A program made the translations under genes and the position numbers. From a virus (taxonomy: Duplodnaviria; Heunggongvirae; Uroviricota; Caudoviricetes), in IMG/VR virus record IMGVR_UViG_2526164598_000016: 40,941 nucleotides of DNA. The stretch is one strand, 5' to 3'. Under the pieces are notes generated by a model. It was not told the origin of the DNA. It worked only from the letters and a program-made list of their open reading frames with translations, and did no database searches. Below are positions 1-22,206 of this stretch, in pieces; within the stretch, counting starts at the first letter, position 1, and every line of letters starts with the position of its first letter.

Positions 1-1131
1 TCAAATGACCAGTTTTTTCCATTCCTTACCGCGTGCGTCGTTGTAAATATCGGTCATTTTTTGATTCGAATGGCCCAGCAAAATTTTGGTATCAACCCCC
101 TGCTCTCTGAACAATCGCTCTGATAAAGATCTCTGCTCATGGAAAGAGGGAGGGGTGCCATTAGCACGCCAGTTGTAATCCACAGAATCCCGGGCTTTTT
201 TAAATGCAACGGTTAATGTTGCTGGCTTAACCATCCCGCCGCGCTTAGCTGTCCCTTTCGCGTGATGGTGGTGCAATAGCCACGGACTAAGAACGCAATC
301 GCGGCAGGATGACACCACATCATCCAGGGTGAGATTTAATTTATCGCAACGCAGAGCCAGAGGGATGGCAATCCGGGTTCCTGTTTTTTGCTGTTCGACA
401 TGAAGATAACCATCCCGGATATCCGAAAATTGCATTTTGAAAATATCTGAAAGGCGCTGGCCTGTCATCAGTGCCAGCAGCATACCGCGCTGTAAAAAGT
501 AACCATCCTTTTCCGCTGCGTTATAAATCATCATCCACTCATCAAAAGTCAGTCGCTGTCTTGATATCCGCACCTGCGGTTTTTTTGCCGATTCTGCAGG
601 GTTAAAGCCTGGCGGGACATCGCCCGTTTGCTGAGCTTCCCGGAAAACATCGATCAGTACTTTCCTGAAAATTTGTCCCATTCTGTTATGTCCTCTGGCC
701 TTGTACTCTTCCAGTACTGATACCACATCTTTTACGGTTATGGCATCTAACGGTCTGGTGCCAAAACGTTCATCAAATACCCTGAGAGGGGCCGCTTTCT
801 GTTTCAGCGTGTTGAGTTTGATCTCGCCGTTTTCATATCTTTCCTGTTGAATTTTTCTGTAATTATTCAGAAAAATGGTAACGGTTGATGAACCGCCGGT
901 ATCACTAATAATTTTCTCCTGCAGACTGAGCATTTGTTCCATTTGCTGCCGGGCAAGACGGCTGTTCGCTTCTGCTGCAATAGTTTCTGCCAGTTTCTGG
1001 TCAATACTGCCGAGACCGTGATTTTTGCCTGTTATGGGATGCCTGTAACGCCAGTAAACTTTGTTATTTCTTTTGTCAAAATACGGAGATAATCCCGGAA
1101 CATCGGTTTTATATTTTCGCGGGCGCGCCAT
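1..1131 (-). CDS. int: Tyrosine recombinase, lambda-family phage integrase
   Basis: 376-aa ORF; C-terminal region has the lambda Int catalytic layout (…HELRSL…LGH…Y…GREW…); stop codon is at window bases 1-3, so the gene is complete and att should lie just outside the window. Confidence 0.9.
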   Translation of the reverse strand: MARPRKYKTDVPGLSPYFDKRNNKVYWRYRHPITGKNHGLGSIDQKLAETIAAEANSRLARQQMEQMLSLQEKIISDTGGSSTVTIFLNNYRKIQQERYENGEIKLNTLKQKAAPLRVFDERFGTRPLDAITVKDVVSVLEEYKARGHNRMGQIFRKVLIDVFREAQQTGDVPPGFNPAESAKKPQVRISRQRLTFDEWMMIYNAAEKDGYFLQRGMLLALMTGQRLSDIFKMQFSDIRDGYLHVEQQKTGTRIAIPLALRCDKLNLTLDDVVSSCRDCVLSPWLLHHHHAKGTAKRGGMVKPATLTVAFKKARDSVDYNWRANGTPPSFHEQRSLSERLFREQGVDTKILLGHSNQKMTDIYNDARGKEWKKLVI

Positions 1132-1185
1132 CTTCCAGTATCCTCTTCAAAGCAGGGTGATCTGTGGCGATCACCTCCGGCTTGT

Positions 1186-1356
1186 TTACCATTCCGACAA
1201 AGCGAGCTTGCGGATCCACTCGCCAGCGTCTTCCAACTTTTTGGGGAGAGGAAATATCATTCCGGCTTTAGCGTATTTACTTAACGTACTCGGAGTAGGG
1301 ACCGGTTCACTGAATTCCTCTTTTGCCCACTCAGTGAGCAGAATAAGTCTTGCCAT
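1186..1356 (-). CDS. xis: Excisionase-like small DNA-binding protein (56 aa, below the ORF-track cutoff)
   Basis: Hand-translated minus-strand ORF MARLILLTEWAKEEF…GEWIRKLALSEW immediately upstream of int in the same orientation; position and size fit an excisionase; no search was run. Confidence 0.55.
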   Translation of the reverse strand: MARLILLTEWAKEEFSEPVPTPSTLSKYAKAGMIFPLPKKLEDAGEWIRKLALSEW

Positions 1357-1420
1357 GAGCGTCGTTCGCTAATCATGGTCGCCGCCACTATAGCTGGTGG
1401 GCAACGACCGGGGTTGAACA

Positions 1421-3892
1421 TTAAAAATCAGCCTGATTCGGGATCAGTTTTTGCCAGATAGCTGAAACGTATTTTGCCTGGTAACGGGCATCATCCAGCG
1501 CATTGTGGCGCTCACCTTCGAATGGGATAGCAGTTCTGGCATCGAAGTCTACGGCTTTCCCCAGCTCAACGATTGTGCGTACATCGCGATCGTTGCAGTA
1601 GCGCCACGGGCAGGGGATACCCTGTCGTTCGTATGAACGGCGCAAAATCGTGTTGTCGAAGTTGGCCCCATTACCCCAGACCTGAACAAAAAACTCACCG
1701 GAGTTTTCGTCGATAAATTCCCGCAATTGCAGTAGTGCATCATCTAACGGGATTTCATCGGTCATAATGGCAGACTGCGCTTCACGTGATTGCTTCAGCC
1801 ACCATTTAATGACGTCACGATCAATGACTCCGCCAGCAGTATCCAGATCGATGGTCTTGCTAAATTCTGGTCCCATATCTCCGGTTTGCGGATCGAAAAA
1901 TATTGCGCCTATTGAGATAATCGGGGCATCGGGATTTTTTCCCATGGTTTCAAGGTCGATCATTAGATGGTCACACGTCCTGCTGGTGGATGTGATAACG
2001 TGATGACCGTTCATCGTAATTAAGGGATCTGCCGTCTCGCCAGTTTCACTATCGCTGGCGTGATCCTGAGCGCTACCAGCATTCTCCTTGTGTGGATGTT
2101 CAGCGCCTTCCATTTCCTTCGGATCATTTTCCTGAACTTCAACCTGATTCTCTTCATCGAATGTTTCCTGGTATGTTGCGTCACCCATCACCGCGCCACA
2201 ATCAGGGCAGTTGCCGCCACCGCTTTGACCGCAGGCGGTGCAGACTTTTTCCGGTTCCTGTTGCGCTACTGGCTCAGGTTGTTTCGTTTCTGGCTCGTTT
2301 TGTTGCGTATTTGGGCTGTTTTGTTCCGCTTTCTGGTCGTTCTGTTCCGATTCTTGCTGGTTCTGGTTTACAGAATCGCGGGTTTCAATCCCCTTTACCC
2401 ATTTCGGATCATTCGGGTCGCTAATCCCTGCAACAAATTCTCCGCGAGAGGCAGCAAGCAACTTATCGGCGTCAGGCTGGCTGATATTGGCTGCCTGCAT
2501 AATTTTGTTTACTTCGTCAGCGGTAACTTTTACCGGCTCTGGTTGTGCGGTCGTGTCAGATGCACCAGTATTTTGTTGTGAACCTGAGTACGTGCCGTTT
2601 TTACGTGCGAAGTATTCCTCTTTTGTGATTTCCGTAGCTCCCAAGGCTAGTGCTTTTTCCAGACCAGAAAGTTTGTTTGCGCGACCGTATTTTTCGCCAT
2701 CCTTGTCGGTGAAGAGGAAGTAGAACGGCCCCTCACGCTCTACAGATGGTTCGACTTCCACTTTGCATTCGGTTTTTTCGTTGCCCGGAATTGCCGTTTC
2801 CACTGCATCAGTTTCTGGTACTGGCGACGAGAGAGTATCAGTTGCGCTCTGATTTCTTCCTTCATCTTCAAACACGCCCTTTGTAGTCAGGTATTCAGTA
2901 ATGTATTTGTTCAGTGCCACAGGGTCTTTGTGAATGTCGATCGGACGTTCACGGACAAGGCCAAAAATAGTCTGGCGGTCGTAGCGAAGGGCATCAGGCT
3001 GTTTGCGCATTGATGCCGAGATACGCTTCCAGTCTTCGCGGTCGTTGTCGATAACTTCATTTTTTGCCCAGCGATGGATGCTGCCGTCAATGTTTCCGGC
3101 ATCCACATCACCAGGCCAGAGAGCGTAGGCCAGTTCGTCATCCAGTGTTTTCCATGTCTGCTTGTATTCGCGATGAATGGCAGCAATGACCGGGCTGATT
3201 TTTCCTGTTGAATTTTCACTGTGCTGTTGATTGGTTCTGGCGCGGGCGAGATCAACAACAGACGTGTATTTTCCGGTTTCCTTGCGTTCACCTTCGCGAC
3301 GTTTTTTCCAGATGCGCATCTCTGCCTGAATTTCGGGCCATTTGGCACCAGGCTTACATTTATGCTTAACCCACCCGATGGCATGCAGCTTAAGCTCCGG
3401 ATACATGGCGTTAACTTCTGGCATTTTCATCAACGCTTCAACGATATGTCCGTCGAATGTTGCCATGTCTTCCTGCAACAATTCCTGTGCGCTAATAACC
3501 ATATCAACGGTGATGTTTTCACATGTGTCGAACTTAACCATGACAGCGTTCTGTACTTCAGGGGCCAGCTTGTCAAAAGTGACGTTCATCGGATCGGATT
3601 CAGTCTCAACCGGGACAAAGGAAGCAGACTCCTCATCCCAGCGGTTTTCCTGCATATATTCAGCATCCCAGGAATCGAGGGCAGGGCGGGGTATACCGGG
3701 TTTATCCTCGCAGACAAGAAATTTATAAGCGCAGTCCTGAGCAGCCGGATAATGCTCCAGGAATTGCCAGTGAAATTTTGCGCGGGCGCGACGTTCATCA
3801 CCGGCTTCAATGGCAGTGGCTACAGCGACGGCACCTTCTTCCTTTATTGCCTGTTCGTCCGGAATGGCGGCGCAAATAAAGACTTTACTCAT
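1421..3892 (-). CDS. ExoVIII-like prophage nuclease; C-terminal DnaQ-like (DEDDh) 3'-5' exonuclease domain, central acidic/Q-rich linker with a CxxC…CxxC zinc ribbon
   Basis: 823-aa ORF; C-terminus has IDLETMG…, …GNGANFD…, …HNALDDA… exonuclease motifs; middle has KVCTACGQSGGGNCPDCG; N-terminus resembles the enterobacterial exodeoxyribonuclease VIII N-terminal family (recalled). Confidence 0.8.
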   Translation of the reverse strand: MSKVFICAAIPDEQAIKEEGAVAVATAIEAGDERRARAKFHWQFLEHYPAAQDCAYKFLVCEDKPGIPRPALDSWDAEYMQENRWDEESASFVPVETESDPMNVTFDKLAPEVQNAVMVKFDTCENITVDMVISAQELLQEDMATFDGHIVEALMKMPEVNAMYPELKLHAIGWVKHKCKPGAKWPEIQAEMRIWKKRREGERKETGKYTSVVDLARARTNQQHSENSTGKISPVIAAIHREYKQTWKTLDDELAYALWPGDVDAGNIDGSIHRWAKNEVIDNDREDWKRISASMRKQPDALRYDRQTIFGLVRERPIDIHKDPVALNKYITEYLTTKGVFEDEGRNQSATDTLSSPVPETDAVETAIPGNEKTECKVEVEPSVEREGPFYFLFTDKDGEKYGRANKLSGLEKALALGATEITKEEYFARKNGTYSGSQQNTGASDTTAQPEPVKVTADEVNKIMQAANISQPDADKLLAASRGEFVAGISDPNDPKWVKGIETRDSVNQNQQESEQNDQKAEQNSPNTQQNEPETKQPEPVAQQEPEKVCTACGQSGGGNCPDCGAVMGDATYQETFDEENQVEVQENDPKEMEGAEHPHKENAGSAQDHASDSETGETADPLITMNGHHVITSTSRTCDHLMIDLETMGKNPDAPIISIGAIFFDPQTGDMGPEFSKTIDLDTAGGVIDRDVIKWWLKQSREAQSAIMTDEIPLDDALLQLREFIDENSGEFFVQVWGNGANFDNTILRRSYERQGIPCPWRYCNDRDVRTIVELGKAVDFDARTAIPFEGERHNALDDARYQAKYVSAIWQKLIPNQADF

Positions 3893-3984
3893 TTTGTTTT
3901 ACCTCATTACAGATTTAAGGGTGAACAAATCCCTGCCATTGCTGGCATATAAGAATGAAACCGGATATTTATTACGGAACTGTT

Positions 3985-4176
3985 TTAAAGACCTGCCGGG
4001 ATTTCGTTATTATCCTGGTGAATAACTTTATCGACCGGGTAACAGTTACCGGGAATTTTCTGTTCGGTTGCTGCAGTCACACACTCCTGCATTGTCCTGT
4101 GAACACTGACTGCAATATCAACTGGCTCTCCGGAAACAAGAAAAACTGTCAGAACAAGTGCAAATGCTGTATTCAT
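3985..4176 (-). CDS. Small protein (63 aa) with N-terminal hydrophobic signal/TM-like segment
   Basis: MNTAFALVLTVFLVSGEPVD…; the start ATG overlaps the stop of the upstream small ORF (ATGA overlap, plus-strand tcat at 4173-4176); lies directly upstream of the nuclease gene in the same orientation. Confidence 0.4.
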   Translation of the reverse strand: MNTAFALVLTVFLVSGEPVDIAVSVHRTMQECVTAATEQKIPGNCYPVDKVIHQDNNEIPAGL

Positions 4177-4361
4177 TGCCAGCATCCTTTTTGTATCGGA
4201 CGTAAACGGGCCAGCATTGAAAGAATGCATATTTTATTTAATAGCTCCCGTTCGTGTTTTCTCTTGTTAATGGCATCTTCAGTAAATACAGGGTTACTGA
4301 TAGTGACACCAATTTCAAAACAACCTTCAGACGTATTAACGTTTGGTAATAACGTTTCCAT
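4173..4361 (-). CDS. Small hypothetical protein (62 aa), translationally coupled to the downstream small membrane/secreted ORF
   Basis: ATG at 4361-4359 preceded by GAGGA about 8 nt upstream (reverse-complement reading); ATGA overlap with the next gene. Confidence 0.35.
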   Translation of the reverse strand: METLLPNVNTSEGCFEIGVTISNPVFTEDAINKRKHERELLNKICILSMLARLRPIQKGCWQ

Positions 4362-4927
4362 TATCGCGTCCTCAACAATGAATTTTGTGATGCGGTGCCT
4401 GGTGCCTCCAGGTGACGTTAACCAGTTAACAATTAACGCCGGATACAGAGAATCCACCCATAACACTGTTTTTGGTTTTAACTGTTCCGCGTGCGCTCAG
4501 CCGCATTCACCACATCACAAAATTCACTTTAAAAAGGGCGGCAGAGCAGTCACGGAGTAAAACTGATACCGCCAAACGTCACCAGAAAATTGATAACAGA
4601 GGGCGTTGCAGCGGGGTTGTCACTTAAGCGTATGGTCAACCTGACAACCCGGTGTCCTCAACGGGGGAAGGAATAACCCCGCCATACTTACCGCCGCGCC
4701 ATTTCGCGGATTGCCACAACCGGAAGCGCACGGTCGACGAAAATTTAACGACAGGCTATCTATGAACCAGCTACCTCGCCGTGCGCTTTCGCGTTATGGT
4801 CTGACTTTTCAGGGAAATATCCTTTCAGTAAACTGTCAGTGCCGGATTCTTATCCGTGTCCGGCGCACGACCACACGCTGTCACGAGAGGTCTCCATTCT
4901 CAACCAGTAACCTCAATGGAGGATAAA

Positions 4928-5122
4928 ATGTCAGAGCAGGAGTTAAAACTTGGTGCATGTTATTGTGTTCTCAAGGAGCTGGTACACATGCTTCCATCTA
5001 CTCAGTATCAACAGTTAGTTGGCAATTTAAATCAGCGAATCGAAGCTATGTTAAAATCTGATGGTTTTAATAACGTAGAAACGCTGATGCTAAAAAGATA
5101 TCTTGATGGATTAATCAGATAA
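4928..5122 (+). CDS. Small hypothetical protein (64 aa), plus-strand gene within a minus-strand early region
   Basis: ATG at 4928 preceded by GGAGGA (4917-4922); about 450 bp of non-coding DNA upstream; the 3' end overlaps the convergent minus-strand gene by 12 nt. Confidence 0.4.
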   Translation: MSEQELKLGACYCVLKELVHMLPSTQYQQLVGNLNQRIEAMLKSDGFNNVETLMLKRYLDGLIR

Positions 5123-5449
5123 CATTTTTTTACGGCGTTCATATTCGTTAATATTTATGAAGCCTGTTGCCAGAAGCAGTTCGTTAATTTCATGGTTGTT
5201 TGGCTGTTTCTGGCTCTTTGAGCTGGGATCTTCCACTTCTTTTTCTGCAAATTGTTTTGCTGTATCCTCTGTGCCATGGATATTTAAAGCTGTATCTGAA
5301 AACAGCCCAGTAAACGCATCGCGCACATTACGAGCCATATTATCAGTGTCTTTTTTTGTTACCGATTCCAATTCAAGTTCGTTCAGACGATGACGAAGTG
5401 TGTGTGCTGCAATCTCCTGGATTGAAGGAGGTAAATCTTTAAATTCCAT
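5111..5449 (-). CDS. Hypothetical protein (112 aa), acidic
   Basis: The internal ATG (MEFKDLPPSIQ…) has GAGG upstream; the ORF track extends 4 codons further to 5461. Confidence 0.45.
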   Translation of the reverse strand: MEFKDLPPSIQEIAAHTLRHRLNELELESVTKKDTDNMARNVRDAFTGLFSDTALNIHGTEDTAKQFAEKEVEDPSSKSQKQPNNHEINELLLATGFININEYERRKKMLSD

Positions 5450-5460
5450 CGTCAACCTCA

Positions 5461-5700
5461 TCAGTCAGTGTTTCTTGCTAACCAGCGATGCGCACCAGCT
5501 GCGGTTTTAAACGTTTTACTTTTGGTATACGTCATCGCGGTGAAGGTGCCGTCCTGGTTAGGGAACACACCGCATACCAGAGATTCGTTGTTGCCAAGAT
5601 TGAGCGTATCCATGTTGACCTCATTTCCCCTTAACGCCGGGGTAGCGGAACAAAAAACCTGCTGCGCTGTTATACAAAGTGTTCCCGCCGTCATGTTCAT
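5461..5700 (-). CDS. Small hypothetical protein, first gene of the leftward early transcript (alternative start at 5613 gives 50 aa)
   Basis: 79-aa ORF; both candidate ATGs (5700 and 5613) have GAGG-like SD; lies just downstream of the PL-like promoter/operator segment. Confidence 0.35.
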   Translation of the reverse strand: MNMTAGTLCITAQQVFCSATPALRGNEVNMDTLNLGNNESLVCGVFPNQDGTFTAMTYTKSKTFKTAAGAHRWLARNTD

Positions 5701-5780
5701 ACGCCTCGGGCTGGCTACTTAACCCCTGACCACTGCCGGGTAACTCGAAGTATTTCCCTGCGTTCTGTGGGGCGGGGTGG

Positions 5781-5830
5781 GTTGGTATTTTTAGTTTAAT
5801 AAACATTAAACTTAAGTCAAGTAAAAACTA
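5781..5830 (-). promoter_or_regulatory. Candidate leftward early promoter/operator (PL/OL-like)
   Basis: Contains TTGACT (reverse complement) and a segment that is an inverted copy of the PR/OR-like region at 6800-6860 (shared TACTTGACTTAA…GTTTATTAAAC and ACTAAACCG). Confidence 0.35.
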
Positions 5831-5904
5831 AACCGCGGGGCATAACAAACACAACGCTTTTGATAAAGTCGTTGCGGTTGTTATGTTTCTATTGGTAGTG
5901 AAAG

Positions 5905-6183
5905 TTAGGGAAACTGGCGTCTTGCGTGGATCACGTTTACTACTTCAACGCTTGATGTTGTTACGCGGTATAGAATTATATAGTTAGGGTGGGCTACAAT
6001 CTCACGCAAGCCAGGTACTCTGTCGCTTGGTGGGTATAAATACGGATGTTCGGATAACGGCAGCACACAACCCCTTAATCGCTGCCATAAGCGTTCAGCC
6101 GCATCTATGTCGAAACGAGCAATATAACTAGTTATATCATCTAGGTCGGTATCTGCGCTTTCAAGCCATAACACGGGTAACAT
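5905..6183 (-). CDS. RelE/ParE-family type II toxin (92 aa)
   Basis: MLPVLWLESADTDLDDITSYIA…VHARRQFP, typical ParE/RelE-fold sequence; start ATG sits 1 nt after the antitoxin stop (TAAAATG). Confidence 0.8.
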   Translation of the reverse strand: MLPVLWLESADTDLDDITSYIARFDIDAAERLWQRLRGCVLPLSEHPYLYPPSDRVPGLREIVAHPNYIILYRVTTSSVEVVNVIHARRQFP

Positions 6184-6184
6184 T

Positions 6185-6376
6185 TTACTGCTTGCTCCGT
6201 TCCTTACGCATCTTAGCAAAGCGTTCTGCCATTCTGCGCTCAACTTCGTCATGGGGAATTGCTGGGCGCGGATCTGCAAGGCTCGTTGCTACTTTCGCAC
6301 GCAGCCATTCGTTGTAACTGTTTTCTTGTTCAATGGTTTCAAATTCAGAAACCATTGGTGAAAGGGCTCTATTCAT
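6185..6376 (-). CDS. Cognate antitoxin (63 aa, ParD/StbD-like)
   Basis: Small acidic protein immediately upstream of and coupled to the toxin; GGAGG SD 6 nt upstream of the ATG at 6376. Confidence 0.75.
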   Translation of the reverse strand: MNRALSPMVSEFETIEQENSYNEWLRAKVATSLADPRPAIPHDEVERRMAERFAKMRKERSKQ

Positions 6377-6396
6377 GTTTCCTCCGGTTTTATAAC

Positions 6397-6675
6397 TCAG
6401 GCGCGGCGGCATTTTTGCGCCGCAATCCATCTCGCTATGAGATCTTCCATTGATTCTTTTTTCTGCTTTAACTCGCTGATTATCTGGCGTTGCTCATCCT
6501 CAGGGAAGGCTGAAAAAATCTGCAATAATTCCAGTTGATTAGACGTTAACCCTGCATGTGGTGGAGAAACCCCCGGTTGTTCTGCGTATTCCGCATCCAG
6601 ATACCCTTCCGGCATCCCGTATGTTTGCTCTATTCTTCTGGCAGCCTTTTCTCCAAACGAGGCTCTCCCACTCAT
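6397..6675 (-). CDS. Prophage repressor (CI-like recognition helix, DicA/RacR-like C-terminal region); the N-terminal part is displaced by a frameshift in an A7 tract (see findings)
   Basis: Frame continues upstream without a start codon as …KKEIRRLRLKEWFKDKTLPPKEKSYLSQLMSGRASFGEKAARRIEQ…; the only ATG (6767-6765) is one frame off across the A7 run; C-terminus has NQLELLQIFSAFPEDEQ. Confidence 0.6.
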   Translation of the reverse strand: MSGRASFGEKAARRIEQTYGMPEGYLDAEYAEQPGVSPPHAGLTSNQLELLQIFSAFPEDEQRQIISELKQKKESMEDLIARWIAAQKCRRA

Positions 6676-6788
6676 TAGTTGAGATAGGTAGCTCTTCTCT
6701 TTGGGTGGCAGAGTTTTATCTTTAAACCACTCCTTGAGACGTAAACGGCGAATTTCTTTTTTTGCATGTGGTAATTATCTTTAGTAAT

Positions 6789-6854
6789 CACTAAACAAGC
6801 AAATACTTGACTTAATGGTTTATTAAACACTAAACTCGCAAAAAAACACTAAAC
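6789..6854 (+). promoter_or_regulatory. Candidate PR/OR: three direct CACTAAAC repeats and a TTGACT -35
   Basis: CACTAAAC at 6789-6796, 6828-6835 and 6847-6854; TTGACT at 6806-6811; lies between the divergent repressor and Cro-like genes. Confidence 0.4.
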
Positions 6855-6864
6855 CGAGGAAGGT

Positions 6865-7167
6865 ATGACATTAAAAGAGTTTATTAAATCATTAAGGGTT
6901 GGTGATGCTAAGAAATTCGCGGCCAGACTTGGTGTATCGCCATCTTACTTATCGCAAATGGCGTCTGGACGAACAGCTATATCTCCAACCCGCGCCCTTA
7001 TGATCGAATCTGCGACGGAAGGCCAAGTAAGTAGGGCGGAGCTACGACCCCATGATTGGGAGCTTATTTGGCCTGAGTATGCGAGCGGCATTCGTTTGGG
7101 GCAAACACATGTAGTTCATGCTGAAGGTGATTGTAGTACATGCTTATCTGATGGAGTTGATTCATGA
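6865..7167 (+). CDS. Cro/YdaS-family HTH regulator
   Basis: MTLKEFIKSL…GVSPSYLSQMASGRTAISP…LRPHDWELIWPEY; resembles YdaS-type Cro proteins of Rac-like prophages (recalled); SD GAGGAAGG. Confidence 0.75.
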   Translation: MTLKEFIKSLRVGDAKKFAARLGVSPSYLSQMASGRTAISPTRALMIESATEGQVSRAELRPHDWELIWPEYASGIRLGQTHVVHAEGDCSTCLSDGVDS

Positions 7168-7589
7168 AAATCAAGCATGAACACATCCGCATGGCGATGA
7201 ATGTCTGGGCGCATCCGGACGGCGAAAAAGTACCGGCTGCGAAAATTACCAAAGCGTATTTCGAGCTGGGAATGACGTTCCCGGAACTGTATGACGACAG
7301 CCATCCGGAAGCCCTGGCCCGTAATACCCAGAAAATTTTCCGTTGGCTGGATAAAGACACCCCTGATGCTGTTGAAAAAATGCAGGCTCTGTTACCGGCG
7401 ATCGAAAAGGCGATGCCGCCTTTGCTGGTGGCCCGTATGCGCAGCCACAGTTCTGAATATTACCGTGAGATCGTCGAACGGAGGGATCGGCTGGTGAAGG
7501 ATGTCGATGATTTTGTTGCGTCAGCGGTTGTTTTGTATGACCAGATGAATCGCGGCGGCCCGGCAGGGAATGCTGTGGTGATGCACTAA
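7164..7589 (+). CDS. YdaT-like protein (141 aa)
   Basis: ATGA-coupled to the preceding gene; the position after the Cro-like gene and the sequence style match ydaT of Rac-like prophages (recalled). Confidence 0.65.
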   Translation: MKIKHEHIRMAMNVWAHPDGEKVPAAKITKAYFELGMTFPELYDDSHPEALARNTQKIFRWLDKDTPDAVEKMQALLPAIEKAMPPLLVARMRSHSSEYYREIVERRDRLVKDVDDFVASAVVLYDQMNRGGPAGNAVVMH

Positions 7590-7611
7590 AAGCACGGTGT
7601 TCGGGGGTTTT

Positions 7612-8574
7612 ATGAGCAGCAAACTTCATGGTCTTGTCTGGGAAGGGTGCGCCTTCACCGGCATGATCTTATCCAGGGTGGCGGTTATGGCCCGTCTTGC
7701 AGACTACAGCAATGACGAGGGTGTGTCATGGCCTGCCATTGAAACTATCCGGCGTCAGATCGGTGCAAGAAGTGAATCCACAGTGAAATCGGCTATTGCA
7801 GAACTGGCGAAAGAGGGCTGGCTGACGAAGGAAGAGCGTAAGGTCGGTGGGCGTAATGTAAGCAATATCTATCGGCTTAATGTGGAAAAACTCGAAGCAG
7901 CTGCGGCGGCGGCGCGTGAGTCATATAAACCGAAAAGAAAAATTAGCCCGGCAAAAAATGACCCGTTAACAGTTGACCCGTCAAATATTGACCCCTCAAC
8001 GGTTGACCCGTCAAATTTTGATGGATCAACTGTTGATAAAAAACTGCCGATTAGGGGGGCGATGATTGACCCCGATCCGTCAGTATTAAAACCTGATCCG
8101 TCAGATAAAAGATCTTCTTGTCCGGACGCTTCGCAACCGGACCCGCAGACGGCTGAACAGGATTTTTTAACCCGACACCCTGACGCGGTTGTGTTCAGTG
8201 CGAAAAAACGCCAGTGGGGAAGTCAGGAAGATTTGGTGTGCGCACAGTGGATCTGGGGACGAATCGTGAGTCTTTACGAGCAGGCGGCCAGCTATGATGG
8301 CGAGATCACTAGACCGAAAGAACCCAACTGGACAGCATGGGCCAATGACGTTCGCACAATGCGGATGCTGGATGGCAGAACTCACAGACAAATTTGTGAA
8401 ATGTTTGGGCGTCTCCAGCGGGATTCGTTCTGGGTAAAAAACATCATGAGTCCGGCAAAACTCCGGGAAAAATGGGATGAACTGGTTATCCGCCTGGGGC
8501 GTTCGCCTGCGCAGCGTTGCGTGAATCACATTTCTGAACCGGACACTGAAATTCCGCCGGGCTTCAGGGGGTAA
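7612..8574 (+). CDS. Replication initiation protein (O-like; N-terminal HTH, iterons inside the gene)
   Basis: ATG at 7612 with GGGGG SD (the ORF track begins at a GTG at 7597); N-terminal winged-helix-like region; embedded iteron array encodes the DPSxVDPSN peptide repeats. Confidence 0.7.
   Translation: MSSKLHGLVWEGCAFTGMILSRVAVMARLADYSNDEGVSWPAIETIRRQIGARSESTVKSAIAELAKEGWLTKEERKVGGRNVSNIYRLNVEKLEAAAAAARESYKPKRKISPAKNDPLTVDPSNIDPSTVDPSNFDGSTVDKKLPIRGAMIDPDPSVLKPDPSDKRSSCPDASQPDPQTAEQDFLTRHPDAVVFSAKKRQWGSQEDLVCAQWIWGRIVSLYEQAASYDGEITRPKEPNWTAWANDVRTMRMLDGRTHRQICEMFGRLQRDSFWVKNIMSPAKLREKWDELVIRLGRSPAQRCVNHISEPDTEIPPGFRG
7958..8020 (+). repeat. Iteron array (about 15-bp period, TGACCCGTCAA core), candidate replication origin
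   Basis: TGACCCGTTAACAGT / TGACCCGTCAAATAT / TGACCCCTCAACGGT / TGACCCGTCAAATTT in tandem, with degenerate copies following. Confidence 0.55.
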
Positions 8575-8614
8575 GTGTTAATTTCTGGTCATGAGGTAAT
8601 TTTCAGGAGGGCTT

Positions 8615-9037
8615 GTGGCAAAAGTTTTTACACAAGAAGAGCGGGAAAAAATTAAAGGGCTGATCGTGGAATTCGTACGCCTTAACGGACGAGGCACGAT
8701 TCGGCAGTTATCGGATGAAATTGGTGTCAGTCATGCGTCTGTCGGTCGTTTATGCATGGAGCTGGCCGCCAGTGGTGATGTTTACAATTCCGGTTACGGA
8801 GTATTCCCGTCTGAGCAGGCGCGCAAGGACTGGCAAAACGCCCGCAAAAAACTCTCAAGGGCAAAGCTGAAGAAACCATCTGTGGTTGATCCGGACCTTA
8901 TCTGGCTATTACCAGACGGCGAAATACGCCGCTACGACAGGCGTCAGAACATAATCTGTCGCGAGTGCCGGAAGAGCGAAGTTATGCAGCGCATATTGTC
9001 GTTTTATCAGGGTAATTTTCAGGAGGTAGCGCAGTGA
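8615..9037 (+). CDS. Hypothetical protein with probable HTH (140 aa)
   Basis: GTG start preceded by GGTAATTTTCAGGAGG; …IRQLSDEIGVSHASVGRL… HTH-like segment. Confidence 0.55.
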   Translation: MAKVFTQEEREKIKGLIVEFVRLNGRGTIRQLSDEIGVSHASVGRLCMELAASGDVYNSGYGVFPSEQARKDWQNARKKLSRAKLKKPSVVDPDLIWLLPDGEIRRYDRRQNIICRECRKSEVMQRILSFYQGNFQEVAQ

Positions 9038-9528
9038 GTGCACCGGCAACCATTCTTGATATGTGCTGTGGCAGCCGCATGTTCTGGTTCGATAAGAATG
9101 ACGACCGGGCGATATTTAGCGATATCAGAAAGGAAGAGCACACATTATGTGATGGACGAAGACTGATAATTAGCCCTGACCTGATAGCAGATTTTCGTGC
9201 ATTACCATTTGCAGACGCATCGTTTCCGGTGGTTGTATTCGACCCTCCGCATCTTGAGCGTGTTGGTGATAACGCCTGGATGGGAAAGAAATATGGACGG
9301 CTGAATAAAGATACCTGGCGTGATGATTTGCGGCAGGGATTTAAAGAAGCCTTTCGTGTGTTGCGGCCATACAGCGTTCTGATTTTTAAATGGAATGAAA
9401 CGCAAATACCTGTTCGCCAGATATTGGCACTGACCGACAGAAAGCCTGTTATCGGTCAACGAACAGGAAAGGGTGACAAGACCCACTGGATTATTTTTAT
9501 GAAGGAGGCGACCAGTGAGCAAGATTGA
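9034..9528 (+). CDS. Small phage DNA methyltransferase (SAM-binding motif I-like LDMCCGS, catalytic DPPH)
   Basis: 164-aa ORF with …ILDMCCGSRMFWF… and …VVVFDPPHL…; GTG start after the second copy of GGTAATTTTCAGGAGG. Confidence 0.65.
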   Translation: MSAPATILDMCCGSRMFWFDKNDDRAIFSDIRKEEHTLCDGRRLIISPDLIADFRALPFADASFPVVVFDPPHLERVGDNAWMGKKYGRLNKDTWRDDLRQGFKEAFRVLRPYSVLIFKWNETQIPVRQILALTDRKPVIGQRTGKGDKTHWIIFMKEATSEQD

Positions 9529-9697
9529 CTATCAAGAACTGCGCGAGGCGGCGGAACAGGCAACGCAAGATGAATGGGTAGCATATATTTTGCCGGGTCA
9601 TAACGCATTTATCCTGCGCGCACGTCTGAGGGTAGGCATTGCGGATACTTTATTGACTGGCCTGGCGTCTGTCAGGGGCGGGAGAGCATCAACATGA
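9515..9697 (+). CDS. Small protein with Ea22/Ead-like N-terminus (MSKIDYQELREAAE…)
   Basis: GTG start after GGAGG; N-terminus is paralogous to the starts of the genes at 10197 and 11622. Confidence 0.4.
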   Translation: MSKIDYQELREAAEQATQDEWVAYILPGHNAFILRARLRVGIADTLLTGLASVRGGRAST

Positions 9698-10200
9698 GCA
9701 TCAGAACCTACGCAGTGAATTGCAATGACGCATGGCTAAACACCGAAGGTGATGACATCTCCGGCTCATACGTTAAGTACAAAGACCATCAGGAAGTGGT
9801 TGCCGCTCTTGAGGCCAAGTGCGCGGCGCTGACAGCGGAGAATGCGGGAATAAAGTCTGCAATTCCAGAATCACGGGATATTGAGGATGACAATGACAAT
9901 ATGGATGACGTATCTCTCGCGGAAGACTTCGGGTTCAATCATGCAATAGAACGGATGAGGAGACAGATACCTGAAACGCCAACCACTGATGCTTTCCTGG
10001 CTGAAGTCCGGGCGCAGGGGGTGGATGCTGCTATAGAAGCTGCAAAAAATCTGGTGGCCCAAGAATATGAGTATAAGGATTTCAAAGCGGCGCAGAGTGA
10101 TTGCTGTATGCACCCTGGTTCAGACCTGGTAGGGAAGGTTGAAATGACTGAGTGGTTAGTTGACTTTGCTGCCCAGCTTCGCAAAGGAGGCAACCAGTGA
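9694..10200 (+). CDS. Hypothetical phage protein (168 aa)
   Basis: ATGA-coupled ORF. Confidence 0.55.
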   Translation: MSIRTYAVNCNDAWLNTEGDDISGSYVKYKDHQEVVAALEAKCAALTAENAGIKSAIPESRDIEDDNDNMDDVSLAEDFGFNHAIERMRRQIPETPTTDAFLAEVRAQGVDAAIEAAKNLVAQEYEYKDFKAAQSDCCMHPGSDLVGKVEMTEWLVDFAAQLRKGGNQ

Positions 10201-10844
10201 GCGAAATTAATTACCAGTCACTGCGTGAGGTGGCGGAACGTGCAATTCCAGCAATGGAACGCCTGTTAATGTTGCCAGCTGATGATGATTTGTTAAGTGA
10301 ACAGGAACTTAAAGATTACGGTGTGGATATTGATGCGCTCAATGCCTTCAAATTTCTGACCGGACCAGAAACCGTGCTGGCACTACTGGACGAACGGGAA
10401 AGAAACCAGCAATACATCAAACGCCGCGACCAGGAGAACGAGGATATTGCACTAACGGTTGGGAAACTGCGTGTTGAGCTGGAAGCCGCAGAGAAGCGCA
10501 ACGCAAAATTACAAAGCGAGAATGCATACATCCGCAACCGGTTCAAAGAGCTGGACCTGTTAATCGGGAAAAACATTCTGGTCATGCAGGCTGCGATTAT
10601 CGAATGGCAGGCAACTGGCGACGCTAAAAGCGGACTGGCATGGATTTATAACACACTGTTTGGCCTAGGCGAATTGCCGGACGAATCTGAGAAAGATGCT
10701 CAGGCCTACTTTAATCGCAAATATGCACCGATTGACGAAAAGCTCATGGAGCTTCACAAGTGGTTTTGGGAACAAAGTGAAGCCGAGCGCGCCGCTGGCA
10801 TTCGCATCAAAGGAGAGGAGCATGGAAATAAAACCAGAGGATGA
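10197..10844 (+). CDS. Ead/Ea22-like coiled-coil protein (215 aa)
   Basis: Starts MSEINYQSLREVAERA…; central coiled-coil-like region. Confidence 0.55.
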   Translation: MSEINYQSLREVAERAIPAMERLLMLPADDDLLSEQELKDYGVDIDALNAFKFLTGPETVLALLDERERNQQYIKRRDQENEDIALTVGKLRVELEAAEKRNAKLQSENAYIRNRFKELDLLIGKNILVMQAAIIEWQATGDAKSGLAWIYNTLFGLGELPDESEKDAQAYFNRKYAPIDEKLMELHKWFWEQSEAERAAGIRIKGEEHGNKTRG

Positions 10845-11178
10845 GTTAAGCAATATCGTTTTATTTCCGGTAAAAGAGGATGACCCTCGTAATCAGGTTA
10901 ATTTTCTTTATGAGCCATCGGAAAGACCATATTGCCATCACGCCTCTGTTCGGGTTGACGAAAAAGAGCGTCAGGTCCGCTGTAAAATCTGCGGTGCAGT
11001 TGTGGAGCCGTTTGACTGGATGCTCTCTGTGGCGAAAAGAGAAACCAGACTGGCAGATGATGTAAGGCTATTGCGCCAGGAGGAACAGGAAAGGCGGAAA
11101 AATATAGAAAAGTTAATTCAGATTGAGCGTAACGCAAAAGCGCGGATATGCAGGGCGACAAAATCCAGAACTGAATAA
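10822..11178 (+). CDS. Hypothetical protein with CxxC zinc-ribbon-like motif (118 aa)
   Basis: Internal ATG at 10822 with AAAGGAGAGGAG SD; …VRCKICGAVVEPF…. Confidence 0.5.
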   Translation: MEIKPEDELSNIVLFPVKEDDPRNQVNFLYEPSERPYCHHASVRVDEKERQVRCKICGAVVEPFDWMLSVAKRETRLADDVRLLRQEEQERRKNIEKLIQIERNAKARICRATKSRTE

Positions 11179-11273
11179 TTAAATTTAGCACTGTAAATAA
11201 AATCAAATCCTTAACCGGAGGGATTTCTGCACCCTCAGAACATCAGGAGGCCGTCCGAAAGGGCGGTAGTGAA

Positions 11274-11456
11274 ATGCGAAAATTCAAAATAATTATTGAA
11301 ACGGGAATAGCCGGTGGAGATTTCGAGGATGAATTCGAAGTGGATGATGATGCAACACCAGATGAAATACAGGATGAAGCTAAAGATATTTTCTTTAACT
11401 ACTGCAATTACTCATACCACGAAATAAAAGACGAAGAGGAAGAACAAAATGGCTGA
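11274..11456 (+). CDS. Small acidic hypothetical protein
   Basis: 60-aa ORF, very acidic. Confidence 0.4.
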   Translation: MRKFKIIIETGIAGGDFEDEFEVDDDATPDEIQDEAKDIFFNYCNYSYHEIKDEEEEQNG

Positions 11457-11625
11457 TTTTGGTTCAACTAAATATAACGCCAGTTTTGAAGAATGGCATG
11501 AACTGTTAATGGATTATGCAGAGTTACGCGGTGGAAGTGCCGCTGATGCTGAAGCATGGCGTGATGATTATGAAGCAGGGAAAACACCGGTCGAAGCATA
11601 TTGTGATGAGTGGGGCGATGAATGA
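11449..11625 (+). CDS. Small hypothetical protein (58 aa, not in ORF track)
   Basis: Hand-translated MADFGSTKYNASFEEWHELL…; overlapping start/stop with both neighbours. Confidence 0.4.
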   Translation: MADFGSTKYNASFEEWHELLMDYAELRGGSAADAEAWRDDYEAGKTPVEAYCDEWGDE

Positions 11626-11981
11626 GCGAGATTAATTATCAGGAAGGGCATGAAAAGGCAGGGCAGGCAAAACCAGTGGCATGGCGATATCGCTACGTGA
11701 AAAAAGGCGTTACAGACTTTCAGGGGAAGCAGTGGGTTGGTGACTGGAAATATGTCCCGACAAAAGAGGATTGCAACGACAGACCGAACTATGAAATTCA
11801 GGCGTTATTCACTGCCCCGCCTGTGCCACTGACACCAGAAGGATTGATTAAAGCAGTGCGTTTCTATGAACAGGTAAAGCGTGAGAATCCGCCAGTCGAA
11901 ACCGGAGCATGGAAAGACGCTGTTGACTGGGTGCTCAAAGAGGCTTGCCAGTCTGTAAACATTGGCATCAAAGGAGAGTGA
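11622..11981 (+). CDS. Hypothetical protein (119 aa) with MSEINYQ start
   Basis: ATGA-coupled; third gene with the shared N-terminal motif. Confidence 0.55.
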   Translation: MSEINYQEGHEKAGQAKPVAWRYRYVKKGVTDFQGKQWVGDWKYVPTKEDCNDRPNYEIQALFTAPPVPLTPEGLIKAVRFYEQVKRENPPVETGAWKDAVDWVLKEACQSVNIGIKGE

Positions 11982-11982
11982 T

Positions 11983-12246
11983 ATGGCAACTTTGACAAAA
12001 AAAGAACAAGCATGGTTGAGCGAATTACAGGACGTTCTTGATCGCTGTCCATCACCGAAAAAAATTGGTTTTTACACCATTGGCGATAAAAGCATTTACC
12101 TGTATGACCTGCGCCGCATGGATGAAATCATGGAGGCTCTTGATAATCGTTCGTCGATGGATTGGTGTGTTGCTGTTCATGATATGAATGCAGGGTTTGA
12201 TGAAAAGATTTTGTTCCCCTCATCAGTTGAAAGCACTGCGGGTTAA
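11983..12246 (+). CDS. Hypothetical protein (87 aa)
   Basis: ATG at 11983 with AAGGAGAG SD. Confidence 0.5.
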   Translation: MATLTKKEQAWLSELQDVLDRCPSPKKIGFYTIGDKSIYLYDLRRMDEIMEALDNRSSMDWCVAVHDMNAGFDEKILFPSSVESTAG

Positions 12247-12879: not shown

Positions 12880-13056
12880 TTGCTGCGGGTGCTTGAGGCT
12901 ATCTGCCTCAGGCATGAACACCAAAAGGCAGATAGAGAAAAGCCCCAGTTAACATTACGCGTCCTGCAAGACGCTTAACATTAATCTGAGGCCCAATCTA
13001 TGTCTCACAAATGTAGGTTAGCCTCTTACGTGCCGAAAGGCAAGGAGAAGCAGGCT
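12880..13056 (-). ncRNA. Candidate hok leader with antisense (sok-like) regulatory region
   Basis: Leader has complementary elements CTATCTGCC / GGCAGATAG and a TGAGGC…GCCTCA hairpin upstream of hok, as in hok/sok loci; antisense promoter not pinpointed. Confidence 0.3.
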
Positions 13057-13212
13057 ATGAAGCAGCAAAAGGCGATGCTAATCGCCCTGATCGTCATCTG
13101 TTTAACCGTCATGGTGACGGCACTGGTAACGAGGAAAGACCTCTGCGAGGTACGAATCCGAACCGGCCAGACGGAGGTCGCTGTCTTCACAGCTTACGAA
13201 CCTGAGGAGTAA
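13057..13212 (+). CDS. hok: Hok/Gef-family type I toxin (51 aa)
   Basis: MKQQKAMLIALIVICLTVMVTALVTRKDLCEVRIRTGQTEVAVFTAYEPEE matches the Hok family (TM helix, …TRK.LCE.R…EV.AF.AYE…). Confidence 0.8.
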   Translation: MKQQKAMLIALIVICLTVMVTALVTRKDLCEVRIRTGQTEVAVFTAYEPEE

Positions 13213-14721: not shown

Positions 14722-15096
14722 ATGCGTATAGAGTTTGTTTTGCCTTACCCGCCGACGGTGAACACCTACTGGCGACGTCGTGGCAGCACATATTTTGTAT
14801 CAAAAGCCGGTGAGCGTTATCGCCGGGCTGTGGCGCTTATTGTTCGCCAGCAGCGGCTGAAATTAAGCCTGTCCGGAAGGCTGGCGATAAAGATTATTGC
14901 CGAGCCACCGGATAAGCGCCGCCGTGACCTGGACAATATTCTGAAAGCGCCGCTGGATGCGCTGACGCATGCGGGGTTGCTAATGGACGATGAGCAGTTT
15001 GATGAAATCAATATCGTTCGTGCTCAGCCAGTATCTGGTGGACGTCTGGGGGTGAAGATTTACCCCATAATGCTTGCAGGGCAGGTCAAAAAATGA
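14722..15096 (+). CDS. rusA: Holliday junction resolvase RusA
   Basis: MRIEFVLPYPPTVNTYW…RDLDNILKAPLDALTHAGLL.DDEQ…; characteristic RusA sequence. Confidence 0.9.
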   Translation: MRIEFVLPYPPTVNTYWRRRGSTYFVSKAGERYRRAVALIVRQQRLKLSLSGRLAIKIIAEPPDKRRRDLDNILKAPLDALTHAGLLMDDEQFDEINIVRAQPVSGGRLGVKIYPIMLAGQVKK

Positions 15097-15914
15097 AACT
15101 GGAAGATTTACCGAAATACTACTCCCCAAAATCCCCCGGCCTGACTGATGCATCGGCCTCAACGTCGAAAGATGCGCTGAGTATCACTGATGTGATGGCC
15201 GCGCAGGGCATGACACAGAATCGGGCTGAGATGGGGTTTTCTGCGTTCCTTGGGAAAATGGGCATTAGTATGAATGACAGAGAGCGGGCAACAGAATTGC
15301 TGACAGAATATGCACTCAGTCGGTGTGATCGCGTGGCGGCGTTAAGAAAACTCCCGGCAGAAATAAAACCGGTAGTGATGCGCATTATGGCTTCGTACGC
15401 TTTTGAGGATTATGCCCGTAGCGCAGCGAGTAAAAAGCAGTGCCCTTGTTGCTATGGGGAAAAATTTATTGAAAGCGTAGTTTTTACAAACAAGGTCCAG
15501 TATCCGGATGGTAAGCCGCCGGTATGGGCAAAGTGTACGAAAGGTGTGTATCCGTCTTACTGGGAAGAATGGAAAAAAGTCAGGGAGGTGGTAAAAGTTG
15601 CCTGTCCGGAGTGTGGCGGAAAGGGTGAGGTTTCCACCGCCTGTAAGGATTGCCGTGGGCGTGGTGTCGCCATTCATCGTGAAGAGTCGGTAAAACGTGG
15701 TATGCCTGTTATCAGAGACTGCCAGCGTTGTGGTGGTCGTGGCTGTGAAAGACTACCATCAACGGAGGCATTTAATGCCATATGCGAAGTGACGAGTGCT
15801 ATCACGCTTGATACGTGGAAAAAATCAGTGAAACGCTTTTACGATACGTTGGTGGTTCGGTTTGACATTGAAGAGGCATGGGCGGAGCGGCAGTTAAAGA
15901 GGGTAACGCGATAG
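15093..15914 (+). CDS. Q: Late-gene antiterminator Q (zinc-finger type)
   Basis: 273-aa ORF with CPCC…CPECGGKG…CKDCRGRG…CQRCGGRG Cys clusters, directly upstream of a PR'-like promoter and terminator. Confidence 0.8.
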   Translation: MKLEDLPKYYSPKSPGLTDASASTSKDALSITDVMAAQGMTQNRAEMGFSAFLGKMGISMNDRERATELLTEYALSRCDRVAALRKLPAEIKPVVMRIMASYAFEDYARSAASKKQCPCCYGEKFIESVVFTNKVQYPDGKPPVWAKCTKGVYPSYWEEWKKVREVVKVACPECGGKGEVSTACKDCRGRGVAIHREESVKRGMPVIRDCQRCGGRGCERLPSTEAFNAICEVTSAITLDTWKKSVKRFYDTLVVRFDIEEAWAERQLKRVTR

Positions 15915-17587: not shown

Positions 17588-17663
17588 GGCCCTTTAGCTC
17601 AGTGGTGAGAGCGAGCGACTCATAATCGCCAGGTCGCTGGTTCAAATCCAGCAAGGGCCACCA
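17588..17663 (+). tRNA. tRNA with CAT anticodon (Ile2/Met-type; ileZ-like of Stx phages)
   Basis: Cloverleaf by hand: acceptor stem GGCCCTT/AAGGGCC, anticodon loop CTCATAA, encoded CCA end. Confidence 0.85.
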
Positions 17664-17763
17664 TCACAAACCGCCATTAGCTTATCAGGAAGAGCAGACG
17701 ACACGATAACAGGGTTGTTGGTGCGGGGGCGGGTCCCCGATGGCGGTCCATTATCGGTATTCA

Positions 17764-17840
17764 GCGTTGTTAGCTCAGCCGGACAGAGCAATTGCCTTCT
17801 AAGCAATCGGTCACTGGTTCGAATCCAGTACAGCGCGCCA
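17764..17840 (+). tRNA. tRNA-Arg (anticodon TCT)
   Basis: Acceptor stem GCGTTGT/ACAGCGC, anticodon loop CTTCTAA, encoded CCA end. Confidence 0.85.
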
Positions 17841-17947
17841 TATTCATTCTTCCAGATTCCTTTCGGCAGAGCCTTATACTGAAATATACCTGGCTCAGGA
17901 TATTGTTGAAAATATTATATGTTTGTCAAAAATAAAAGTTCTGTTAA

Positions 17948-18304
17948 GTGTTGATTGAGTGTTTGTTATACGGTCTAATGGTTTTTTCAGCATTAAATAT
18001 TTATCATTCATATGGTGTGGGTAGAGTGAATATTGATGAGGCGTCGGGGTGTTTCATCCTTAGGCAGCGTATTGATATAGTCAATGCAGAACGAGCAAAG
18101 GCCTTCAGCCGTTTGACAGTTTTGTTCTGTACTCCTGATCGTCTTTCGGGAAGAGACGTTATTATTCTGAATAGTGATGCTATACAGAGGGTTTGCGATG
18201 AGTTCATGGTGGCTAATTCAGAATTATTTGCTCTTGTTCAGGAGTACAACAGAATAGCCAGGACCTGTGGTATGGATGAACTTCGGATTACTCATCTGGG
18301 GTAG
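17948..18304 (+). CDS. Hypothetical ORF in the cargo slot (118 codons from GTG; alternative ATG at 17978)
   Basis: Open frame only; no convincing SD; unknown product. Confidence 0.3.
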   Translation: MLIECLLYGLMVFSALNIYHSYGVGRVNIDEASGCFILRQRIDIVNAERAKAFSRLTVLFCTPDRLSGRDVIILNSDAIQRVCDEFMVANSELFALVQEYNRIARTCGMDELRITHLG

Positions 18305-18696
18305 ATACATATCTGGATTATCACCGGTTACGGTAAAAAGTGATTGCTTACTGTTTTTGTGAATGGCATTGCAGCAGCCGGATAATGTCAGTGCTGGCTG
18401 ACGGTGTGCTGGTGGCGGGTGTGGTGGTTGCTGCTTTCCCGTTGCTGAAAAAGAAAACGCCAGACTGTTAGCCGGGTATCAGTTAGCGGGAGAAATTTTT
18501 AAATACTTCACAATTCAGGCGGTTGACTGTTGTCTGGTTTGCGGGGAGTTTGTTAAAAGAAACTGGCATGGTGAATCCCCCTGTGCGGAGGGGCAATCAG
18601 CGAGTAGGTATATGGGATAATCGCGGATTCAGGTGCTGGTACTGAATTCACCGGGAGGCACCCGGCACCATGCAATGGCACATAGCGCCACTCTCC

Positions 18697-18731
18697 AGCC
18701 CCTCTCCGGAGGGGCTGTTTATATTGATTTT
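18697..18731 (+). terminator. Hairpin plus T-rich tract (plus-strand terminator-like) inside the cargo slot
   Basis: AGCCCCTC-TCCG-GAGGGGCT followed by GTTTATATTGATTTT. Confidence 0.45.
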
Positions 18732-18760
18732 GTCAGATGTGAGTAAACTCCTTATGGACT

Positions 18761-19087
18761 TTATTGTTTTAGCCCATAAGGACATATTTGCAGAGTGCAA
18801 CGGTTATTAAAGCATTCATTCAATACGTTATCTGTATTTGTAGGGCATTCCTGGCTGTTTTTGATTAAATTCCAGAATGTTTTATTGAATGGTACTACGT
18901 TGTAAATGGTTACAGGTAGCACTTTGTTATTGAGCATGATGCCTGTGTGAGTCAGTGTAAATATACTTTCAGGAGGTAAGAAAGCATCCGATTGATACCA
19001 GATTATTAATTTTATTTTACTCCATATGACTGAAAAAGATATTCCGCATGATGGCTGGATAACTGTATCAATCACAATCCACTTCAT
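18761..19087 (-). CDS. Hypothetical Cys-containing protein (108 aa) in the cargo slot, opposite orientation to late genes
   Basis: ATG preceded by AAGGA at 7-nt spacing (reverse-complement reading); AT-rich codon usage; four Cys in the C-terminal third. Confidence 0.35.
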
Positions 19088-19347
19088 TTAGTTTCCTTGT
19101 TTATGCCTTGCTGGTGATGTTCTGAAAAGTATAAATGATATTTTTGATTGTAAACCATAGAGCAGAATTATTTTTCTGATGTTGTTTATTGTTTATTTAA
19201 ATGCAGGGTGGTTTATATCTCGTCTTGTAGTTTATCCATGCATATCTGCTTGATGATGAGGTTTTTAATTAAGGTATGGTTTTGTGTTTTTTCTGTATTA
19301 CATGTCAGGTATTTTAAAGAATCATTTTTCAGATGGTGGAAAGAACC

Positions 19348-22157: not shown

Positions 22158-22206
22158 ATCTCTTTATCCTGGTTGTCACAGAATAAGCCCGGTAAAATAC
22201 GGGCTT

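Follow-up and report, generated by a model that had tools for sequence, protein, structure and literature searches.

[quoted passage not shown] 2010; Sterckx et al. 2016; Jurenas et al. 2021). The first description dates from 2010, and structures followed between 2012 and 2023. Papers of 2021 and 2023 reported that the module is regulated in a lambda-like manner and occupies the rex slot; in the words of Prolic-Kalinsek et al. (PMC9986795), paaA2-parE2 "replaces rexA and rexB". Following Hallez et al. (2010), as far as that study is cited in PMC8630535, paaR2, paaA2 and parE2 constitute one operon that is down-regulated by PaaR2. The paaR2 mRNA is leaderless and originates from promoter PRM933P, and the protein starts with MQKKE (Jurenas et al. 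2021, PMC8630535). The footprints of PaaR2 and YdaS overlap across a control region of 97 bp, both proteins repress PRM, PR and PL, PRM is activated by low levels of PaaR2, and a PRE-like promoter is activated by YdaT (PMC8630535), for which an operator site and a footprint have also been described (PMC9986795). The −35 and −10 elements of PL933P are identical to those of PR933P, and the promoter is accompanied by three operators (PMC8630535). The locus is bistable. Its RAE2-on subpopulation is lost in a paaR2 stop-codon mutant, which is viable, and both states show transcription of the toxin-antitoxin pair but no detectable ParE2 activity at steady state (PMC8630535). The antitoxin PaaA2, a degradation substrate of ClpAP and ClpXP, does not contain a DNA-binding motif, while induction of the SOS response and co-localisation with the nucleoid are reported for the toxin (PMC8630535), for which the literature reports neither binding of GyrA59 nor inhibition of gyrase. 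In experiments with plasmids, the locus stabilised an unstable mini-F plasmid via post-segregational killing, and the authors proposed that the module stabilises the immunity region of the prophage (PMC8630535).

Several other systems resemble RAE2 in part. The paaR1-paaA1-parE1 module of CP-933M, also from O157:H7, is likewise built of three components and borne by a lambdoid prophage (PMC8630535); it is a diverged paralogue. Classical ParDE systems, such as those of RK2/RP4, of Caulobacter (ParE1, PDB 3kxe) and of Vibrio cholerae (ParDE2), share with RAE2 the toxin fold, the Pfam family, the order of antitoxin and toxin genes and the addiction function. However, ParD has a DNA-binding domain and autoregulates its operon, whereas PaaA2 is devoid of such a domain and a separate protein that resembles CI takes over regulation; likewise, poisoning of gyrase is established for the ParE toxins of RK2 and Vibrio but reported absent for ParE2 with GyrA59. 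Lambda rexA-rexB occupy the same slot 3' of the repressor gene, are co-transcribed from PRM and are bounded by OL/PL, yet RexAB is an exclusion system, while only addiction has been shown for paaA2-parE2. Finally, ParE(SO)/CopA(SO) of CP4So from Shewanella oneidensis and PfiT/PfiA of Pf4 from Pseudomonas aeruginosa are prophage-borne pairs of the ParE superfamily that, as far as the available descriptions go, are implicated in prophage stabilisation or phage production; going by the same descriptions, on which the likeness is based, they are two-component systems with antitoxins of other families and lie outside a CI/Cro switch.

The DNA studied here (the window, 40,941 nucleotides at its full length) carries on its minus strand, in this order, paaR2 (6397–6767), paaA2 (6185–6376) and parE2 (5905–6183), with 20 nt between the first two genes and 1 nt between the last two. 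With a probability that we put at about 95%, this locus is a copy of RAE2 that belongs to the immunity region of an E. coli lambdoid prophage of the CP-933P/Sp12 type; no observation speaks against the identification. The features of the region are as follows:

5790–5838, minus strand: PL933P-like promoter with OL-type operators, directly beyond parE2
5841–5885, minus strand: stable hairpin 20 nt past the parE2 stop codon, with 21-nt arms that are 81% complementary
5905–6183, minus strand: parE2, 92-aa ParE-family toxin, translated as MLPVLWLES...ARRQFP followed by the stop codon
6185–6376, minus strand: paaA2, 63-aa antitoxin without DNA-binding domain, translated as MNRALSPMV...KERSKQ followed by the stop codon
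6397–6767, minus strand: paaR2, regulator analogous to CI, frameshifted by loss of 1 nt at codons 2–4
6756–6763, minus strand: homopolymer run in the paaR2 start region, in gene sense A7 (6757–6763) plus G (6756), with the slippery heptamer A_AAA_AAG at 6756–6762
6768–6864, no strand assigned: divergent control region of 97 bp with OR operators, PRM933P leftward and PR933P rightward, base for base that of O157:H7 strain 86-24
6865–7167, plus strand: ydaS, Cro analogue (Pfam YdaS_toxin PF15943, 3.3e-12, and HTH_3), with exchange A92T relative to O157:H7
7157–7174, plus strand: YdaT operator OM (TTGATTCATGAAAATCAA), an exact TTGATTN6AATCAA at the ydaS/ydaT junction, adjoining PRE933P
7164–7589, plus strand: ydaT, CII analogue (Pfam YdaT_toxin PF06254, 2.8e-10), whose protein is identical to the O157:H7 copy

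Over about 2.9 kb (positions 5624–8572), the window is 98.98% identical to the corresponding locus of O157:H7 strain 86-24. ParE2 and PaaA2 are identical to the copies of that strain, and the window proteins match the '2' set exactly and not paaR1-paaA1-parE1. Compared with RAE2 of CP-933P, the same ParE2, PaaA2, YdaT, 97-bp region, gene order, PL-like site and YdaT operator are found, and the differences comprise the A7 run and a G67V exchange in paaR2, the A92T exchange in YdaS and another surrounding prophage mosaic.

For the 92-aa protein, a search against PDB yielded 100% identity over residues 1–92 with 5cw7_B/5cze, 'Plasmid stabilization protein ParE' (E=7e-60), and 60.9 bits (cutoff 23; 1.9e-16) were obtained with Pfam profile ParE_toxin PF05016, with ParE2 residues 4–91 aligned to positions 1–89 of the 89 positions of the profile. 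A distant match links ParE2 to Caulobacter ParE1 (PDB 3kxe, E = 3.6e-5). Residues 2–63 of the 63-aa protein are identical to 'PAAA2' in PDB 3zbe_A/5cw7/5cze, and in a Pfam scan at E ≤ 0.01 the sole match was PaaA2 PF21217 (70.7 bits, cutoff 27). On these sequence grounds parE2 and paaA2 are genuine genes and not chance open reading frames, because the proteins are 100% identical along their entire length to proteins solved by crystallography or NMR and score above the Pfam gathering thresholds. The sequence-only reading of this DNA had announced a 63-aa antitoxin and a 92-aa toxin of the RelE/ParE fold, 1 nt apart on the strand of the repressor gene. Translation at 6185–6376 and 5905–6183 bears out sizes, strand and spacing, with the paaA2 stop codon separated from the parE2 ATG by the single nucleotide 6184, and the fold of ParE2 is experimentally known because its sequence is identical to that of the crystallised protein (5cw7_B/5cze). 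The same reading had suggested an antitoxin of the ParD/StbD type; here the antitoxin itself stands, as the protein is identical to PaaA2 of PDB 3zbe, but the family does not, since the profile scan returned PaaA2 PF21217 alone and profiles for ParD, StbD and RelB gave no match at E ≤ 0.01. PGAP labels the 63-aa antitoxin 'RelB family'. Homology of the pair to RexA or RexB was not found either; the Pfam matches comprise ParE_toxin and PaaA2 only.

Two candidates were rejected. A 124-aa toxin reading frame initiated by TTG (5905–6279) is a mechanical artefact of the listing of open reading frames; the 92-aa form that starts at ATG is the one that was crystallised and that RefSeq annotates. As a second candidate, a 132-aa 'HTH domain-containing protein' (P0049) in the PaaA2 cluster was considered as an ancestral DNA-binding antitoxin and discarded, as its sequence is that of a PaaR-type paralogue and not of a PaaA2 fusion; E. 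coli PaaR-like 132-aa HTH proteins of this kind have a PaaR2-like C-terminal region.

The signals around the genes agree with the published switch. Footprints and 5' RACE are available for a control region identical to that of the window (PMC8630535). It contains operator half-sites of the GTTTAGTAA type at 6779–6796 and 6818–6828 and, on the plus strand, a PR-like promoter (TTGACT-18-TAAACT, 6807–6836). Beyond parE2, PL-like hexamers with the same sequences as those of PR (TTGACT-16-TAAACT) are located on the minus strand at 5820–5793, and operator arms of 24 nt, with a perfect core of 12 nt, are mirrored between 5794–5817 and 6805–6828. The repeat TTGATTN6AATCAA occurs once in the window, at 7157–7174. 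The spacer of 20 nt between paaA2 and paaR2 (6377–6396; the paaR2 stop codon is 6397–6399) holds a GGAGGA Shine-Dalgarno sequence. After parE2, a simple terminator scan of the minus strand called no canonical intrinsic terminator. The 126-nt RNA segment 5785–5910, which contains the hairpin at 5841–5885, folds at −28.4 kcal/mol (z = −4.3 versus shuffled sequences); the stem is not GC-rich and a run of U residues begins about 9 nt past it. The hairpin may mark the end of the operon transcript.

The toxin-antitoxin pair is flanked by paaR2, the CI analogue, on one side and by a PL-like promoter on the other, and so occupies the rex position to which the sequence-only reading had assigned it and which is also stated in print. 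That reading is correct, but already published, and the same applies to two of its further proposals: co-transcription with the repressor gene is on record as an operon read from a leaderless PRM-type promoter (Hallez et al. 2010, as cited in PMC8630535; PMC8630535), and a stabilising role as plasmid stabilisation by post-segregational killing (PMC8630535). As a discovery the locus carries little weight; it is rather a calibration point, in that raw sequence sufficed to recognise a toxin-antitoxin pair correctly, together with the logic of its regulation.

All published parts of the module are present and conserved in the window. According to the literature on identical proteins and an identical control region, a weak, leaderless PRM-type promoter drives the leftward operon paaR2-paaA2-parE2. 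PaaR2, a CI analogue without a RecA-cleavable domain, and YdaS, the Cro analogue, compete for common operators at OR and at the PL-like site and thereby establish two heritable states, and YdaT turns on a PRE-like promoter whose transcription likewise extends into the operon. PaaA2 binds and neutralises ParE2 while being degraded by ClpAP and ClpXP; upon loss of the locus, ParE2 is set free, elicits the SOS response and kills the cell. This addiction is proposed to stabilise the immunity region of the prophage. In the window copy, however, the gene for the regulator is frameshifted, so that bistable control may deviate from the published scheme.

The frameshift, which the sequence-only reading had overlooked, is confined to the start of paaR2. 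Intact copies begin with ATG CAA AAA AAA GAA (A8), whereas the window reads ATG CAA AAA AAG AAA (A7). The zero frame that starts from the true ATG (6767–6765) encodes 30 aa (MQKKKFAVYV...YLN) before it stops, and the intact frame of 123 aa from the leaderless ATG is consequently absent; the remainder of the gene is in another frame, the first in-frame ATG of which yields a 92-aa ORF (6397–6675). After correction of the frame, residues 1–66, i.e., the N-terminal domain, show no difference from the 'Phage repressor protein CI' of PDB 7nkv/8c3k, and G67V is the sole difference from PaaR2 of O157:H7 strain 86-24.

We give an even chance to the possibility that the frameshift is an error of homopolymer sequencing or assembly and that the source module is fully wild-type. 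In comparison with E. coli ATCC 25922 and Ecol_745, one T missing from a run of T8 is the only change across 221 nt (6650–6870), and the allele is rare: among the 593 complete E. coli genomes that bear the locus, 579 match a probe for A8 exactly and three carry A7, all of them swine ETEC strains from one sequencing project. The call of the 92-aa ORF occurs on 24 contigs, as opposed to at least 1000 and at least 999 contigs for two intact variants, and a single contig with A9 also fits miscalling of run length. At NCBI, the 92-aa form is entered from genome drafts of early date, those of O26:H11 CVM9952 and O111:H8 CVM9574, which we take to have been pyrosequenced. Pyrosequencing is prone to homopolymer errors. 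On the other hand, A7 is present on at least three SNP backgrounds among the contigs that were fetched, namely one identical to the window (L009), one with 4–5 mismatches to it (L007, L008, L010 and L011) and one with 14 mismatches (ETEC1732), and one A7 contig recurs in 11 samples, a pattern that fits recurrent real slippage mutations as well. The lineage of ETEC1732 has the A7 allele, yet its structure is a different one and 14 SNPs set it apart.

In the record of ETEC1732 (NZ_CP122823; 19678–20034 of locus L003), RefSeq/PGAP calls the frameshifted paaR2 a 118-aa 'hypothetical protein' and not a pseudogene, and the frameshift is therefore hidden in the annotation. The start position of this ORF implies a non-canonical start codon, which would be ATT.

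A true frameshift that amounts to plain loss of function in a decaying cryptic prophage is possible, though on balance we regard it as unlikely. Under these circumstances, PaaR2 would be absent, ydaST would be locked in the on state and the toxin-antitoxin genes would be kept only since their loss would be lethal. The absence of PaaR2 could be tolerable: the paaR2 stop-codon mutant is viable, loses nothing but the RAE2-on subpopulation and still transcribes the toxin-antitoxin pair (PMC8630535), and an IS66-family element in the late region is expected to cripple lytic growth and hence to make derepression bearable. If A7 is real, the switch would be expected in the ydaST-on state, as predicted from the published stop-codon mutant, with basal and PRE-driven expression of toxin and antitoxin. 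However, a complete paaR2 null is not assured, because single-base deletions close to the start codon are, according to the literature, rescued to 25–60% on the related site C_AAA_AAA. When translated in silico, a −1 slip after codon 4 of the A7 allele gives exactly the wild-type PaaR2 of 123 aa, and a little authentic protein might still arise in this way on the A_AAA_AAG heptamer that the deletion creates. Folding of the RNA downstream of the heptamer did not reveal a structure that could stimulate frameshifting (z = −0.7), in line with a plain null, and a stimulator of the upstream Shine-Dalgarno type is impossible because the paaR2 mRNA is leaderless. For both of these reasons, rescue of PaaR2 by slippage is probably low, if it occurs at all.

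A different function for the module, i.e., that of a phage-exclusion or abortive-infection system that would match lambda RexAB in function and not in position alone, appears improbable to us as its main role. Some type II toxin-antitoxin systems do defend against phage. In such a scheme, a heterologous phage would stop host transcription or speed up PaaA2 turnover, ParE2 would be released and the infection would be aborted, and the rexAB position, the expression from the lysogenic promoter and the lability of PaaA2 as a substrate of ClpAP and ClpXP (PMC8630535) would all suit it; against it stand the search of PADLOC-DB v2, in which ParE2, PaaA2 and frame-corrected PaaR2 matched no family at E ≤ 0.01, and the study of the module itself, the authors of which saw no ParE2 activity at steady state and favour addiction and stabilisation (PMC8630535). 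No report of a phage-defence test was found in the literature on the module (PMC8630535, PMC9986795) or in wider paper searches. The exclusion function that the sequence-only reading had put forward next to stabilisation thus gains no support from either kind of search.

Very improbable, finally, is a real A7 allele that is not a simple knockout and would allow low-level synthesis of full-length PaaR2, either by a ribosomal −1 slip on the dnaX-type heptamer A_AAA_AAG or by slippage of RNA polymerase, with the A-run as a mutable setting for how much of the CI analogue is made; if this were true, the run would bias the bistable switch toward ydaST-on while the addiction module stays expressed. 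The paaR2 homopolymer allele is the only lead left from the window, and it is a weak one.

RAE2 is widespread in E. coli. A probe of 81–82 nt that covers the 5' end of paaR2 and the operators matches 593 of 5426 complete genomes (about 11%), and at least 80% of the 1.5-kb locus is held by 590 complete E. coli genomes. The module is not confined to cryptic prophages, since the locus is also carried by Escherichia phage Evi (LR597642), one phage record, with an intact PaaR2 (98.4% identity), PaaA2 (98.4%) and ParE2 (100%). In that record, parE2 (14828–15103 of locus L004) is unannotated, whereas paaR2 is labelled a 'putative regulator' and paaA2 appears under the name hypothetical protein. The prophage in the window is a mosaic, because no complete E. 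coli genome covers at least 80% of window positions 1–12000.

The window as a whole represents the left-to-centre part of a lambdoid prophage with genes for an integrase (1–1131) and an exonuclease (1421–3892), dicB and DicF, the immunity region, an O-like replication gene, Q, and genes for lysis, terminase and tail. In the late region, an IS66-family element (21412–23745, plus strand; three ORFs, namely HTH_Tnp_1, TnpB_IS66 and a DDE_Tnp_IS66 transposase of 512 aa) has inserted itself where a nanS-p-like esterase gene is followed by the lysis genes. A polar effect on the transcription of late genes is to be expected, which would render the prophage defective. The esterase (622 aa; DUF1737, SASA, DUF6645; nanS-p-like) belongs to a stretch on the plus strand (17588–21201) that also encodes tRNA-Met(CAT), tRNA-Arg(TCT) and the sRNA STnc100 (18537–18726), an order that is also seen past Q in Stx-converting phages; no large ORF suggestive of stx genes is present in the interval from the tRNAs to the esterase gene. 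A second toxin-antitoxin system, of type I, is located at 12887–13062 on the plus strand, where the Rfam model for the sok antitoxin RNA scores 121.7 bits, and by analogy with the annotation of the related ETEC1732 prophage a hok/gef-family gene presumably adjoins it.

The O-like replication protein (HTH_36; 7597–8574, plus strand) contains the reiterated peptide DPLTVDPSNIDPSTVDPSNFDGSTVD, which suggests iteron-type origin repeats inside the gene, as in lambda O. It is followed in the window by a DUF977 gene and in the copies of O157:H7 and ATCC 25922 by a gene for a DnaC-like ATPase. On the other side of the immunity region, the sRNA DicF (4536–4587, minus strand; Rfam 76.7 bits) adjoins a dicB-type ORF of 62 aa (within 4173–4466) and a DUF1482 gene (3985–4230), and the segment 4173–4587 is a cell-division-inhibitor cluster of the Qin/Rac type that lies downstream of the PL-like promoter.
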